From Candidatus Kaiserbacteria bacterium (lineage in GTDB: Bacteria; Patescibacteriota; Minisyncoccia; Phycocordibacterales; Phycocordibacteraceae): DNA of 64,000 nt. A program made the position numbers and the translations under genes. The stretch spans positions 3,184 to 67,183 of the forward strand of contig JACRFL010000013.1 in assembly GCA_016217905.1 (NCBI GenBank), given 5' to 3'. A model generated the notes under the pieces. The model saw nothing but the letters and a program-made list of their open reading frames with translations. It searched no databases and was not told where the DNA came from. Of the stretch, positions 13,147 to 19,299 are shown piece by piece (position 1 is the stretch's first letter; every line of letters starts with the position of its first letter).

Positions 13147-14130
13147 CTATCGTTTTGCCGCCTCCGGAGGAAGACCCGGGAGCGGGCGTCGAACCGCCCC
13201 CACTGGACTGTTCGTCGAACCGCCTGCTTGCGCCAACAAGGGCACCGTGAACCGGCGCTCAACGCTTATCGTCGGCGGCGAGGCCCGAGAGATGACGCGG
13301 TATACGTACGTCTCTCCCGGCGTCAGACCGGTGAGTAAGAAAGAATGATTCGTTACTTTCGTCGTGTCTTCGGGAGTGGCGAACGGGTAGCCAAAATTCG
13401 GAGGTATCAGGACCAGAGCGTAGGGGCCGCCGGAGACCGGGCCATAGACGACCTGGCTGGTCGAGAGAAGATTTGTTTCCCACGTTATCGTGGCTAGTCC
13501 GGACTGGCCCACGTTCGATATGTCGAGGGCTTTTTCGTTGAATATGAAGAGACTGTTCCCAATCGATCCCCCGCCTCCTCCTCCGCCAGAACCAAGAATA
13601 GTCCCACCGCCCGGCGGCGTTCCACCTCCTCCGCCGCCTTCGCCTCCTACGACCGTGTTGCCGCAGCGGGTGGTACCCCCGTTGAACCCGACGCATACGT
13701 CGAAGCCGAGCGTCTTTCCTTGATACGAATTATCGCTTGAATCGATGAAGGAAACGTTGTACGTGAACGTCTTTGATTCTCCGTTTCCAATCGCACCGAG
13801 AGGGACTTCACCGGCGGTCGAGAGGAAATTCGCAAGAGAGTCGTCGAAGAGTGTTCCGCTGTTCCCGGTTATAGAGAGATGCAGAAGGGCGCTGAAGTTG
13901 CCGGCATCAAAAACATTAATGGCTTCGGTCAAGACGTTTTGTGTCGCGCCGGAATTATTGGTGACCGTAACGGTGCCGGCCGTCGAGTCGAGCGGAAGAA
14001 AATTCGATTTGTTGAACAGCGGATCCGGGACGAACTGGACGCCAAGCGGCGCCTGTGCCAAGGCAACGCCGGCGAAGCCCGTCAGAGAGAGGGCGACGAC
14101 CGGCAGTATCGAGATTTTAAGAAAGTTCTT
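13147..14130 (-). CDS. Secreted protein with poly-Gly linkers and a C-terminal fibronectin-III-like domain
   Basis: Start taken at MKNFLKISILPVVALSLTGFAGVALAQA (signal peptide); the upstream part of the reported ORF overlaps the preceding gene. Internal GGEGGGGGGTPPGGG and GSGGGGGGGS linkers. The C-terminal block LATITWETN...LTGLTPGETYVYRV is FN3-like. Confidence 0.55.
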   Translation of the reverse strand, partial: KNFLKISILPVVALSLTGFAGVALAQAPLGVQFVPDPLFNKSNFLPLDSTAGTVTVTNNSGATQNVLTEAINVFDAGNFSALLHLSITGNSGTLFDDSLANFLSTAGEVPLGAIGNGESKTFTYNVSFIDSSDNSYQGKTLGFDVCVGFNGGTTRCGNTVVGGEGGGGGGTPPGGGTILGSGGGGGGGSIGNSLFIFNEKALDISNVGQSGLATITWETNLLSTSQVVYGPVSGGPYALVLIPPNFGYPFATPEDTTKVTNHSFLLTGLTPGETYVYRVISRASPPTISVERRFTVPLLAQAGGSTNSPVGAVRRPLPGLPPEAAKR

Positions 14131-14137
14131 CATACGT

Positions 14138-16135
14138 TTATTCGGCCGGGGTCGCCTCCGTCGGAGCGCTCTCGACAACTGCCGGAGCGCTCTCCGCCAC
14201 CACTGCCGCCGGCTCCGCTGGAGCGACTGCGGGCTCGGGGATGGCTGGCTCGACCGGCGTTTCCACGGCCGCTTCCGGCTCCGGAGAGAGAATGTCCTCT
14301 TCACGTGTGACGGCCGGCTCGACCGCCGCCGGCTGATCGGGAGCGGCCGTCTCCGCGGGAGCGGTCTCTTGAGACGTTCCCTCTGTCGAGATAGTCGTTT
14401 CAGACGCCACGATCTCGGTCTCCTCGGACGCACCTTCCTCGACCGGCAGCGGCGCCACGACGTTCTCCGGCCCGATGAAGAGGGGGAACGGATCATAGAT
14501 TCGGCCGCTCACGCTGCCAGAATTGAGCATCGGATTTTCCGGACCGATGGCGACGAGATGGATCCAGATGTAGCCGAGGAATCCGGACGGCACCGTCCAG
14601 GTAAACGCGCCGTCGTTTCCAGTAGTTTCGACTATCGTGTGCGTCGTGTCACCCAGACTTATTTTTCCGTCGTGGTTTACGTCCTTCACGTAGTAGATGC
14701 CGATGTCGAGGTCGCCGTCGGGGCCGTTGTTATTCGTCGCCGTCCACTTGATCTCGTAACTGTGCGTCCAGTACCACGTGTACGAGCCTCCCTCGTCCGG
14801 GTAGACGAGATCGATCGAAGGCGGCACGAGTTCTTTCCAATCGGAGGGCGCGTCGGTGTCGTAACCGGAAGGTACTCGAGCAAGGACGTTGCCCTCGGCG
14901 ACATTTGCCGCCCCGGGATCCCAGACGTTCGGATTGTAATTCGTCCATCCGGTGTCGGGGGTGCCCCAGTTCATCTGGTCGACGATAATCCTGTCGGGAC
15001 GTTTGAGGACAAGCATGTCGGCGTCGTTATCCAAACCGCCCCCGATTTTCGAATGTATGTTGATTTCGGTCACCTCGCTCGGCAGATACCAGTACGCGGG
15101 CAGGCCGCTCGAAACGGTCGTTGAGGTGGCGGTGGTTGACGTGGCAACGATGACCGCATATTTCTGCGCGGGAATGAGGAGTGTCGTCGGCAGGGTGTCA
15201 CACGAGGTGTTGTCGCAAATCTGCCATCCGGAAATATCCAAAGGCACGTTTGTCTGATTGTAGATCTCCACCCATTCGTTCGTACCCTCCGCACCGCGCT
15301 CCGGCGTTTTCACGTTGTAGTAGATCTTGTTGATCCGGAATCCCCACGAAGCGAGATGGTTTTTTACTTTTTCCGTATCGTTAAATCCGCCACCCTCGTA
15401 GCTCGGGTAGTCGTGCCGCGTTTGCCAGCCGTTGTAATCGATGTCGAAGTCGCAGGTGCGGTTTTGGAGATTGCTGGTCCCCGCCGTGTAGGCGAATTCC
15501 CACGGGTCGAGCGCGGTTGTCGTGGCGGTGAGGAGCCCCGTAAGAGGACCGTGATACATCTGGGTGCCCCCGCGCGTCGCGGTAACGTCAAGCCCCGAGC
15601 AGAAATCGGCATCGCCGGTAAAGTTGGTCGAGGTGGCGAAGTATTGAAACGGATTGCTCGCTTGCGGGTCGATCGCAACCGTCTTTTTCGTAACATCTCC
15701 GGGCGGCATCGACACGGCCGTACTCGTCGCCTGCCAGCCGGAAGTTGTCAGCGAGAAATCGACCGAACCCGCCCGGAAGGCATTCTCGGTCGAGCTCTCG
15801 ATATCGTTGTAGTATCCCCTTGTACTGCCGAGGCCGGTGATGCCGACGCTGTTAAGGCCGATCATGAGCGTGACGGCGAGCGCTTTAAGCGACAGCCGCG
15901 GCGTCGCCCTTATAAAAAACGGAGAGAGGACGCTCTTGCGCCTGTTCGCCCGCGCCGCGCGCGGCGCGCACGCGGCGCGCGGGCGCAGATCGAGCACATG
16001 CGCAGACGACGCGACGCGACGCGCCTTCCTCCTGGCGACCCTTCTCACCGGCACGGAAACACGCGCAGCGACAGTCGCTTTTTCTTTTTTCCGGGGAGTC
16101 TTCTTTATCGCTCCCGTTTTAATATGTACCGCCAT
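14138..16135 (-). CDS. Large secreted protein with a SipW-cognate-type N-terminus, a lamin-tail (LTD) domain and an acidic Pro/Ala/Glu-rich C-terminal tail
   Basis: The N-terminus has the SipW-cognate (TasA/camelysin-type) motif LMIGLNSVGITGLG...ESSTENAFRAGSVDFSL. The LTD motif NEWVEIYNQTNVPLDISGWQICDNT is present. The C-terminus reads AVEPAVT...PAEPAAVV. The exact start is uncertain because the N-terminal extension is basic. Confidence 0.65.
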   Translation of the reverse strand: MAVHIKTGAIKKTPRKKEKATVAARVSVPVRRVARRKARRVASSAHVLDLRPRAACAPRAARANRRKSVLSPFFIRATPRLSLKALAVTLMIGLNSVGITGLGSTRGYYNDIESSTENAFRAGSVDFSLTTSGWQATSTAVSMPPGDVTKKTVAIDPQASNPFQYFATSTNFTGDADFCSGLDVTATRGGTQMYHGPLTGLLTATTTALDPWEFAYTAGTSNLQNRTCDFDIDYNGWQTRHDYPSYEGGGFNDTEKVKNHLASWGFRINKIYYNVKTPERGAEGTNEWVEIYNQTNVPLDISGWQICDNTSCDTLPTTLLIPAQKYAVIVATSTTATSTTVSSGLPAYWYLPSEVTEINIHSKIGGGLDNDADMLVLKRPDRIIVDQMNWGTPDTGWTNYNPNVWDPGAANVAEGNVLARVPSGYDTDAPSDWKELVPPSIDLVYPDEGGSYTWYWTHSYEIKWTATNNNGPDGDLDIGIYYVKDVNHDGKISLGDTTHTIVETTGNDGAFTWTVPSGFLGYIWIHLVAIGPENPMLNSGSVSGRIYDPFPLFIGPENVVAPLPVEEGASEETEIVASETTISTEGTSQETAPAETAAPDQPAAVEPAVTREEDILSPEPEAAVETPVEPAIPEPAVAPAEPAAVVAESAPAVVESAPTEATPAE

Positions 16136-16158
16136 ATATCGGTGTGGAGGTCAGACCT

Positions 16159-18127: not shown

Positions 18128-18148
18128 GTTCTTTTGTTAGGCTGGTGA

Positions 18149-18973
18149 CTATGCCGACCTCGGTGAACAAAGGAATCCTGGATTGTTTCGAGATTGCACT
18201 GCACGGAAGCTCACATCAGCAGTCAAACTGTCGGTCTGCGTGATGTTGTTTACCTGGGAACCATTGCAGACGATACCTCCAGTTGAATTGGCCGGGGTTC
18301 TTGGGCTGGTCGTACCCATCCCATCCTGCTCAAGAGGAGCTGCCGAAATAGCGCCAAAACACCACGCCTTACCGATGAAGCGCTCTGAACCGCCCGGCAA
18401 TGGACCTCCTTCATCCGTCCAGATGTTCGTTTGAGAGTCAGCGAGGGCAACCGACGATGTCGCTGAGGCCGAGGCAAGCGTTCCCGAAGGGAGCGGCGTT
18501 TCGTTGTTCTCTAGAACATTGTCTCCGTCGTCAGCCCACCACATGAAGTTTACTGCCTGTGCCAATTCTCCGTTACCGGCACCATCTGATACATCACCAT
18601 CCTGCCTTTCCGGTTCCGTAATACCGTTATCATCGTTACTCGTCAGCTTTACGTCAGCACAAACGTAGGCATCGTTGTTGTTTACGTGGAGACTGATAGT
18701 GTCCTCCCCTCGATCGCCTGGCTTAAGATCAAGAAAATTAAAGAATTTCTCAATCGTCAAATCCTTTAATTCCCAAGTCGTGTCTTGATTCAGAACACCG
18801 TTATAATAACTTTCGTTATCAACCTTCAGATCAATCGCGCCGGCGGTGAAGGTGTTGCCGGTTGATGTCTCCGTGTCCGAGAAGAACGCCCCTGTCGCGC
18901 CTAAAGTGGCCGCAACGACGAACACAATCACTCCCAGACTCAAGAGAATCCTTTTGTTAAGAAGTGCTGTCAT
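18149..18973 (-). CDS. SipW-cognate secreted protein (TasA/camelysin-like), a paralogue of 16799..18127
   Basis: Start taken at MTALLNKRILLSLGVIVFVVAATLGATGAFFSDTETSTGNTFTAGAIDLKVD. The N-terminal domain is homologous to the adjacent gene. Confidence 0.7.
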   Translation of the reverse strand: MTALLNKRILLSLGVIVFVVAATLGATGAFFSDTETSTGNTFTAGAIDLKVDNESYYNGVLNQDTTWELKDLTIEKFFNFLDLKPGDRGEDTISLHVNNNDAYVCADVKLTSNDDNGITEPERQDGDVSDGAGNGELAQAVNFMWWADDGDNVLENNETPLPSGTLASASATSSVALADSQTNIWTDEGGPLPGGSERFIGKAWCFGAISAAPLEQDGMGTTSPRTPANSTGGIVCNGSQVNNITQTDSLTADVSFRAVQSRNNPGFLCSPRSA

Positions 18974-19299
18974 AACGTATTCTTTGTTTACGCACCTTCT
19001 AAATAGGTGTCTGCAAACACGAATAGAGCGCGTTCGCACCCGCAGACGCCCCGTCTGCAACTGCCATAAGTAGATACCTCCCTAAGATCAAAGTCAACTT
19101 GTTGACAAGAACAAGAAATGCAATGCAATCATGGAGGCCGGACCTCCGCTAGAGACGGGCGACACTATCCCCACCCACACTTGCGCCTCCAGGACATTTC
19201 TGGCATACTGCGGGCACTCGCAGAGTATTCGAGCTTCGCTCGGCCGCTTGCGGCCGCAAGTGTTCAGTTTCGGCGAGGTTAACCGGTTAGACCCACCAC

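Follow-up and report, generated by a model that had tools for sequence, protein, structure and literature searches.

A probable SipW-dependent operon for a TasA-type surface fibre or matrix in a Candidatus Kaiserbacteria bacterium, with counterparts across Patescibacteria

The TasA fibres of Bacillus subtilis are assembled by donor-strand exchange (PMC9674648, PMC10151520): mature TasA starts at residue 28, and the stretch from there to residue 38 is a donor strand by which the sandwich of the next subunit is completed, with contacts made by F29, I32 and F39; deleting residues 28-38 reduced the formation of fibres (PMC9674648). In TapA a similar N-terminus is joined to an Ig-type fold that is complete, and TapA provides the first strand (PMC9674648, PMC10151520), and the most conserved residues of TasA-like proteins sit in the protomer interface (PMC10151520). 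The AbpA/AbpB bundling pili of Pyrobaculum calidifontis are likewise built from a subunit of TasA fold by donor-strand complementation (7UEG; PMC9245690), and AbpB, which is TapA-like and has distal beta-domains, is the proposed initiator and adhesin (PMC9245690). Wang et al. (2022) already counted Patescibacteria among the phyla with PF12389 homologues, and TasA-family genes in this group have been noted before only in that form, as a Pfam distribution (PMC9245690). Here we describe a locus in a 64,000-nucleotide stretch of the genome of a Candidatus Kaiserbacteria bacterium, which is uncultured and ultra-small (contig JACRFL010000013.1, positions 3,184 to 67,183), hereafter the window, in which five co-directional and closely packed genes lie on the minus strand in the order A, B, signal peptidase, C and D, spanning 12722-18973 if the detached tail of D is included. 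We read these genes as a SipW-dependent operon for a TasA-type surface fibre or matrix, and put the probability of this reading at roughly two in three.

The hidden Markov model (HMM) matches of the five genes are well past chance level, and the first point in favour of the reading is a signature at the N-termini of three of their products. The pattern T-x-[AG]|[FY][FY]xD.E.S..N.F.AG is common to A, B and C and occurs exactly three times among all open reading frames (ORFs) of the window, that is, in these proteins; it is contained in GATGAFFSDTETSTGNTFTAG of A and GGTIAFYADTETSTGNIFTAG of B. Against TIGR04088, a 34-position HMM of this signal and N-terminus with a cutoff of 19 bits, A scores 21.1 bits and B 22.3 bits. 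Against PF12389 (Peptidase_M73, cutoff 22.5 bits) A scores 29.8 bits over residues 11-193 and B also passes, with a match that we take up below, and neither C nor D matches this family. The initial annotation had named sub-threshold HMM scores for the SipW-type peptidase or the cognate signal as grounds for its refutation; the scores of A and B, and that of the peptidase given below, lie above their cutoffs. A and B are paralogous to one another (E 3e-35), residues 7-61 and 66-270 of A aligning to the N-terminus and to approximately residues 245-431 of B; B is in effect A with an insert of about 185 amino acids (residues ~60-245) after the N-terminal strand. This insert has nothing significant in Pfam or the PDB, B alone has no meaningful match among PDB sequences, and B orthologues occupy the same position in related loci. 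By these profile matches A and B are members of the TasA/camelysin family, the two paralogues with a diagnostic N-terminus that the initial annotation had described, and some of the 3843 homologues found for A are named 'TasA family protein' or 'SipW-dependent-type signal peptide-containing protein' by NCBI. Most close homologues of A are about 450 amino acids long and end in a PF19403 (SpaA-like prealbumin-fold) domain; the A of the window is a short form that lacks it.

An AlphaFold2 (AF2) model of A, with a predicted local distance difference test (pLDDT) score of 77, places a helix at residues 3-29, leaves 28-44 disordered and has beta strands from 49 to 260. Of 350,542 PDB chains the one that it matches best is the TasA fibre 8AUR_A (E 8e-4, probability 0.99), AbpA (7UEG) ranks ninth, and on this model A has a jelly-roll beta-sandwich fold of TasA type. 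The initial annotation had proposed to look for N-termini competent for donor-strand exchange, and in the monomer model residues 28-44 of A are unpacked. Signal cleavage is predicted at T27-G28-A29|F30 in A, T22-I23-A24|F25 in B and T105-R106-G107|Y108 in C, from the -3/-1 rule and from alignment to T-W-A|A-F-N-D of TasA. The register of this alignment is our assumption; with it, F31 and F42 of A would presumably fall at the positions of TasA F29 and F39, and the TasA sequence used agrees with the residue numbers given in PMC9674648. Residues 30-49, which follow the predicted cut, are the most conserved 20-residue segment of the A family (0.90, compared with 0.71 elsewhere), and this peak at the mature N-terminus parallels the conservation reported for the protomer interface of TasA-like proteins (PMC10151520).

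The second point is the peptidase. It scores 99.8 bits against TIGR02228 (archaeal/ER-type signal peptidase I, cutoff 51.85), and carries the GSMEPT motif, both in keeping with its first annotation, and has membrane helices at its N- and C-terminus. Against the Bacillus SipW equivalog NF046067 it reaches 106.3 bits, under the cutoff of 190, and since it passes the one model and falls below the other we call it SipW-type or SipW-like and not a SipW orthologue. Archaeal and ER-type signal peptidases use a catalytic serine, in an SM.P box, and a histidine in place of the Ser/Lys dyad. We take S43, H82, D101 and D107 to be the candidate catalytic residues; the last three are invariant in 47/47 aligned peptidases of related cassettes, and S43 (in GSMEP) is present in 44 of them, with gaps in the other three. 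As judged from these alignments, the locus encodes a dedicated peptidase with its Ser/His/Asp set intact, placed between three proteins that share an unusual signal and mature N-terminus. This is the logic of tapA-sipW-tasA, a dedicated peptidase among substrates with a shared signal class, to which the locus had been likened from the outset.

The third presumed substrate, C, combines this type of N-terminus with a lamin-tail domain (LTD), recognisable from NEWVEIYN...ISGWQI and scoring 42.6 bits against PF00932 (cutoff 34.3) over residues 268-391. The AF2 model (pLDDT 75.8) is disordered over residues 1-77, has a membrane helix at 79-100 and further disorder at 102-114, and then contains three confident beta domains at approximately 128-263, 266-436 (the LTD) and 440-548, followed by a disordered tail. 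The acidic, P/A/E-rich tail that had been noted alongside the LTD is confirmed by composition, with 59% P/A/E in the last 110 residues and 25 D/E against one K/R. The claim that C shares the signal class of A and B stands in part. C itself has no match to TIGR04088, but 27/62 members of its family match at E<=0.1 (best 3.7e-6), alignment of the C-family helix and N-terminus with the A-family signal and N-terminus by hhalign gives 98.5% (E 3e-15), and a close homologue is labelled with the TIGR04088 name by JGI; by this family-level evidence C probably belongs to the same signal class as A. Ahead of the helix lies an extension, residues 1-78, with 23 K/R against 2 D/E and pLDDT below 50, which is predicted to remain on the cytoplasmic side of the membrane. 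Members of the C family carry similar basic stretches of 0 to ~130 residues, some of which align to that of the window (e.g. P0033 and P0073), and this homology indicates that the extension is translated.

The third line of evidence is that the genes recur together. One genome per GTDB species was scanned, which gave 80 loci whose ORFs were searched with the window proteins, and gene order was counted for 43 orthologues of C that include the N-domain, from species-representative genomes. The peptidase lies directly upstream of C in 41/43 of these, with all genes on the same strand, D lies directly downstream in 37/43, and at least one TasA-like gene, most often two, is found upstream in 39/43. 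The recurring order is [TasA-like x1-4]-SipW-C-D, and the lineages that have it include Kaiser-, Yonath-, Taylor-, Campbell-, Zambryski-, Vogel-, Nealson-, Portnoy- and Beckwithbacteria and CPR3. From gene order, C and D, both accessory proteins, accompany the peptidase in the same arrangement across Patescibacteria. Copies of A, C and D with 100% identity are NCBI proteins from a 76.6-kb contig of a Candidatus Kaiserbacteria bacterium. More than 140 homologues of C were found, all with an LTD and all from Patescibacteria-type sources (Kaiser-, Campbell- and Zambryskibacteria, Paceibacterota and others). An exhaustive search with the C helix and N-domain returned 899 cluster representatives (at 50% identity) at E<=1e-3 and 392 at E<=1e-10; a local LTD HMM finds the domain in 94 of 122 further representatives checked (~77%), most of the remainder being short. 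The initial annotation had called an LTD on a SipW substrate unusual; its presence in most relatives of the C module, in a large and conserved family, makes it instead the standard architecture in this phylum.

Two loci contain the peptidase and the LTD protein as a single ORF, at 9305-10642 of locus L080, from a Patescibacterium, and at 5343-6932 of locus L054, from a metagenome-assembled genome (MAG) labelled Clostridia, which also has TasA-like and D-like neighbours. In both, the order within one uninterrupted frame is peptidase, basic linker, membrane helix, AYF(S/N)D motif and LTD, and the linker of the L080 fusion contains no start codon. The predicted topology is coherent: the C-terminal helix of the peptidase would end in the cytoplasm, followed by the basic linker, and the next helix would return the cleavage motif to the outside. 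The fusions speak for the LTD protein being a genuine substrate of this peptidase, and for the basic extension of C being the free-standing version of the fusion linker. Together with adjacency in 41/43 loci, they suggest that the peptidase may cleave the signals of the neighbouring TasA-type proteins.

Some loci depart from this pattern in order or in label. In locus L027 (8974-13847) the order is TasA-like, C, D and then the peptidase, which follows D and does not precede C. Loci L007-L012, L028, L033, L038, L040, L069 and L072 have titles that name Saccharibacteria, Gammaproteobacteria, Pseudomonadales or Bdellovibrionales; the proteins of these cassettes share 30-50% identity with those of Kaiserbacteria, which makes these automatic labels look unreliable, and we have not used doubtful MAG labels to claim any spread beyond Patescibacteria.

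The fifth protein, D, differs from the other three in its N-terminus, which has an ordinary signal (ALA|QA) and no sequence of the FFxDxExS type. The five frames lie where they were first placed, save that D begins at the ATG at 14133-14131; a start at 14130 would drop the initiator Met. Its Gly-rich linker and FN3-like domain had also been noted, and the latter scores 32.7 bits against PF16656 (FN3-like, purple acid phosphatase N-terminal; cutoff 30), with 16.6 bits against PF00041 (fn3), under the cutoff. The N-domain of D (residues 27-165) aligns with that of C (residues 135-239) over 105 columns at 95.8% (hhalign, E 6.9e-9) and is, by this alignment, its paralogue. We had also considered D as an acceptor of TasA fold; hhalign of its N-domain against the A family gave 0.15%, and the assignment was narrowed to a paralogue of the C N-domain. 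Searches found 208 homologues of D; among the 120 listed, 116 are at least 350 amino acids long, typically 380-500, and all 116 of these have a C-terminal transmembrane (TM)-like segment. The D of the window is shorter, and its missing part is found in another frame: a single G added in silico to the run at 13197-13201 gives an ORF of 470 amino acids with TM-like segments at 375-393, 420-438 and 439-457, the same C-terminal architecture as in P0122-P0124. The region matching this tail is fused to a D N-domain in loci L049, L071 and L078, and the last 80 codons of the tail, taken alone, make up an ORF with its own ATG at 12722-12964. The frameshift is present also in the independent contig L001, whose sequence is identical, and an independent Logan assembly of run SRR12113407 contains the same 5.4 kb at 100% identity, although both assemblies may come from the same reads. 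The shift could be due to slippage, to a genuine truncation or to an error common to the assemblies.

Table 1. Positions in the window of the five genes and of the parts of their products.
Feature	Position	Strand	Basis
Gene A, 274 aa	18149-18973	minus	ORF list and HMM
Gene B, 442 aa	16799-18127	minus	ORF list and HMM
SipW-type signal peptidase, 181 aa	16159-16704	minus	ORF list and HMM
Gene C, 665 aa	14138-16135	minus	ORF list and HMM
Gene D as it stands, 328 aa	13147-14133	minus	ORF list and HMM
A: signal helix, residues 1-29, then beta-sandwich	18149-18973	minus	AF2 and HMM
A: candidate donor strand and linker, residues 30-49, FFSDTETSTGNTFTAGAIDL, equivalent to TasA 28-47	18827-18886	minus
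C 1-78: basic disordered extension, predicted cytoplasmic	15902-16135	minus	charge count and AF2
C 79-134: membrane helix 79-100 with conserved GLN motif, then motif YYNDIESSTENAFRAGSVDFSL	15734-15901	minus
C 135-266: N-terminal beta-sandwich, paralogous to D N-domain	15338-15733	minus	hhalign; pLDDT >90
C 267-436: lamin-tail domain (LTD)	14828-15337	minus	PF00932
C 437-665: Ig/FN3-like domain ~440-548, then disordered acidic P/A/E-rich tail 556-665	14141-14827	minus
D: Sec signal 1-26, N-domain 27-165, Gly-rich linker, FN3/PAP-N-like domain	13147-14133	minus
D: G5 run, break of frame	13197-13201	minus	three-frame translation and in-silico repair
D: out-of-frame continuation, Gly/Ser/Glu-rich linker and three membrane-helix-like segments	12722-13196	minus

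The genes around the cassette include a FAD-linked oxidase (10217-11965, plus strand), an RRM protein (19300-19650, plus strand), a methyltransferase and a bPH_2 protein. They are unrelated and lie on the other strand or further out, which sets the limits of the operon at about 12722 and 18973. The RRM gene is divergent to the operon and directly upstream of its presumed promoter region; it encodes 116 amino acids with a Gly/Arg-rich tail and matches PF00076 at 79 bits. About 2.5 kb downstream of the operon, at 8887-10224 on the minus strand, is a gene for a secreted lipase- or esterase-like protein of 445 amino acids, which combines a signal peptide with a faint Ig-like region and an alpha/beta-hydrolase part resembling LCAT/PGAP1 (PF02450, 40.9 bits); no family matches its neighbour, a 428-amino-acid ORF at 7483-8769. 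The 64-kb window, along which GC content ranges from about 47 to 63%, contains no tRNA gene and nothing that reaches the gathering threshold of an Rfam family. A defence system was considered and ruled out, there being no PADLOC match.

In proposing how such a cassette could work, we follow the TasA system. The SipW-type peptidase would cleave A, B and C on the outer side of the membrane and so free their conserved N-terminal segments, each of which could then serve as a donor strand that makes the next subunit's beta-sandwich complete. A would be the main building block, and B a subunit to which a further domain, possibly for ligand binding, has been added. C, with a donor-type N-terminus on a different beta-sandwich, might take a role like that of TapA and start or tip the fibre, with the LTD, the Ig-like domain and the acidic tail exposed so as to bind a surface, a host cell or envelope polymers; the basic cytoplasmic extension and the helix may hold it beside the peptidase until cleavage. 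D, having an N-domain of the C type and no donor-type N-terminus, could be a membrane-anchored partner by which the assembly stays attached to the cell. In this genome, where D has lost its anchor after a frameshift of one nucleotide, the system may be impaired or set free from the cell, or may vary among members of the population.

Several points weigh against this reading. Fibre formation, cleavage and strand exchange are argued by analogy with the TasA system, and the roles suggested for C and D are putative. The match of B to PF12389, at 23.6 bits, covers residues 10-49 only. The similarity of the A model to 8AUR_A is modest (TM-score 0.36/0.41, 16% identity), and a profile of the A family has no match to PDB sequences at E<=1. 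Beyond its N-terminal strand the globular domain of C has only generic fold matches, of Ig, FN3 or macroglobulin-like type and none to TasA or TapA; Saf, CfaE/CfaB and FimA subunits are among the generic Foldseek matches of its model, and the C-family profile finds only chance matches among PDB sequences (E 0.69-9.3). Pfam searches with the isolated insert of B, the N-domain and Ig-like domain of C and the N-domain of D returned nothing significant, faint matches to Enas (E 0.39) and DUF7239 (E 0.19) being disregarded. TIGR04087 (TapA/YqxM) does not match the C of the window and matches one of 62 family members faintly (E 0.056); C is not a member of the TapA family, though it may work like TapA. 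The function of bacterial LTDs is unknown (PMC6085458). D may keep a first strand of its own (GVQFV) and need no donor strand, and in the window it is, by comparison with its homologues, frameshifted, so that its anchor is lost and it ends about 140 residues early. Finally, promoter and terminator scans, which are uninformative for this phylum, showed neither a sigma-70-like site upstream of A on the minus strand nor a convincing terminator after D.

The alternative that survives best is that the peptidase is the general type I signal peptidase of the cell, or one of several, and its neighbours are ordinary and abundant envelope proteins, for instance of a surface layer or wall, that it processes but that form no donor-strand fibre. 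Patescibacteria have reduced genomes, and the 64-kb window contains no second signal peptidase or relative of this one; moreover, the domains of C and D are generic Ig/FN3-like modules of the kind typical of envelope proteins, and both proteins have membrane helices. Yet the ordinary AxA-type signal of D implies a second, conventional peptidase and hence a dedicated role for this one, and the special N-terminal motif is limited within the window to A, B and C. Nor does a mere signal peptide require the conservation of A to peak beyond the cleavage site, and the top structural match of A is a fibre-forming protein. We consider this explanation unlikely. Even if it were correct and the operon merely an ordinary envelope operon, thousands of proteins now annotated as 'hypothetical' or 'LTD-containing' would gain an improved annotation.

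A surface structure mainly for binding or capturing DNA is another candidate, in which the LTD of C would bind extracellular DNA and so serve matrix building or the scavenging of nucleotides by an auxotrophic cell. Patescibacteria rely on the import of nucleotides, extracellular nucleases such as ExeM carry LTDs, and faint matches to the ExeM model through the LTD occur in 5 of 62 members of the C family. ExeM without its LTD has a lower nuclease activity in vitro, but the role of the domain there is unresolved and it is dispensable for DNA degradation in vivo (PMC6085458). HMM scans reveal no nuclease or OB-fold domain in any protein of the cassette, however, and the strongly acidic tail of C, with its single basic residue, would repel DNA. 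These considerations make a DNA-directed structure distinctly unlikely.

It might also be that the operon is decaying or switched off in this genome, the frameshift in D being a loss of function and the ancestral structure no longer built. D is indeed some 140 residues short and without the anchor that all 116 long homologues have, and the same frameshift appears in two assemblies. Against this, the other four genes are intact and of full length relative to their homologues, as are both extracellular domains of D; the shift falls within a short run of G, so that it may be an artefact of assembly or a slip that can revert, and the two assemblies may share their reads. Decay of the locus therefore seems very unlikely to us. 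A role for A and B as secreted metalloproteases of the camelysin type (MEROPS M73), and not as structural subunits, is suggested by the name of the Pfam family they match, Peptidase_M73, camelysin metallo-endopeptidase, but is scarcely credible given that no cassette protein contains an HExxH motif and that conservation peaks in an N-terminal strand, not at a catalytic site.

Returning to the fibre or matrix reading, its elements can be joined with the comparative evidence into a wider picture, which we regard as possible but doubtful in its entirety. The cassette would specify a filament found throughout Patescibacteria that depends on neither sortase nor usher; an LTD adhesin would nucleate or tip it after release from a membrane-tethered precursor by its partner peptidase, which in some lineages is fused to it so that cleavage would occur within one polypeptide; and a membrane-anchored, strand-less paralogue of the adhesin N-domain would hold the filament. 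This could be a second filament, besides type IV pili, for the attachment of ultra-small episymbionts to hosts or surfaces, and the frameshift in the G run may toggle it between tethered and shed states.

Patescibacteria make up a large share of bacterial diversity, and those in cultivation live attached to other microbes. To our knowledge, only type IV pili have so far been tied to this attachment. If the proposed reading is true, a second structure for adhesion or matrix formation in these bacteria has a concrete, testable candidate in the cassette, a bacterial lamin-tail domain gains its first functional context, and the fusions of peptidase and substrate offer a natural experiment on substrate recognition by SipW-type peptidases. 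What is new relative to the initial annotation is the frameshift of D and the loss of its anchor, the paralogy of the N-domains of C and D, the basic extension of C, the conservation across the phylum and the fusions. In the literature that we searched there is no description of the five-gene cassette, of an LTD-bearing SipW substrate, of the anchored accessory protein or of a peptidase-substrate fusion. We consider the cassette an undescribed variant of a known system, that of tapA-sipW-tasA, with parts already named in database annotations.

The structural features of the cassette can be compared with four described systems. ExeM-type proteins resemble C in carrying an LTD on an exported, membrane-associated bacterial protein (PMC6085458); C differs in having no nuclease domain, and in that its LTD follows a SipW-type signal and a TasA-operon N-domain, a combination not discussed in that literature. 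Chaperone-usher pili (type 1 and P) share the proposed logic of a donated N-terminal strand with specialised first and last subunits for adhesion and anchoring, but here there is no chaperone, usher or outer membrane and the sequences are unrelated, so that the likeness is one of principle only. The AbpA/AbpB pili are closer, the model of A matching 7UEG; however, the archaeal operon has no dedicated signal peptidase, LTD protein or anchored protein of the D type, and the similarity of AbpA to TasA is seen only by profile and structure methods, whereas A passes the Pfam model directly.

The closest system is the tapA-sipW-tasA operon of B. subtilis, from which the cassette departs in several respects. 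The order here is two TasA-like genes, the peptidase and the accessories, and not tapA-sipW-tasA; there are at least two TasA paralogues, one of them with a 185-amino-acid insert; and C, compared with TapA, has an LTD, an Ig-like domain, an acidic tail and a basic cytoplasmic N-extension that reaches about 130 amino acids in the family. The fifth, membrane-anchored protein D has no counterpart in Bacillus, the peptidase falls under the SipW equivalog cutoff, and the host is a Patescibacterium. What the two operons have in common is a dedicated archaeal/ER-type signal peptidase encoded among its own presumed substrates, which share a special signal and a conserved mature N-terminus; a main subunit in PF12389, that of the cassette having TasA (8AUR) as its best structural match; and an accessory protein, C here and TapA there, in which a donor-type N-terminus is placed on a different beta-sandwich.

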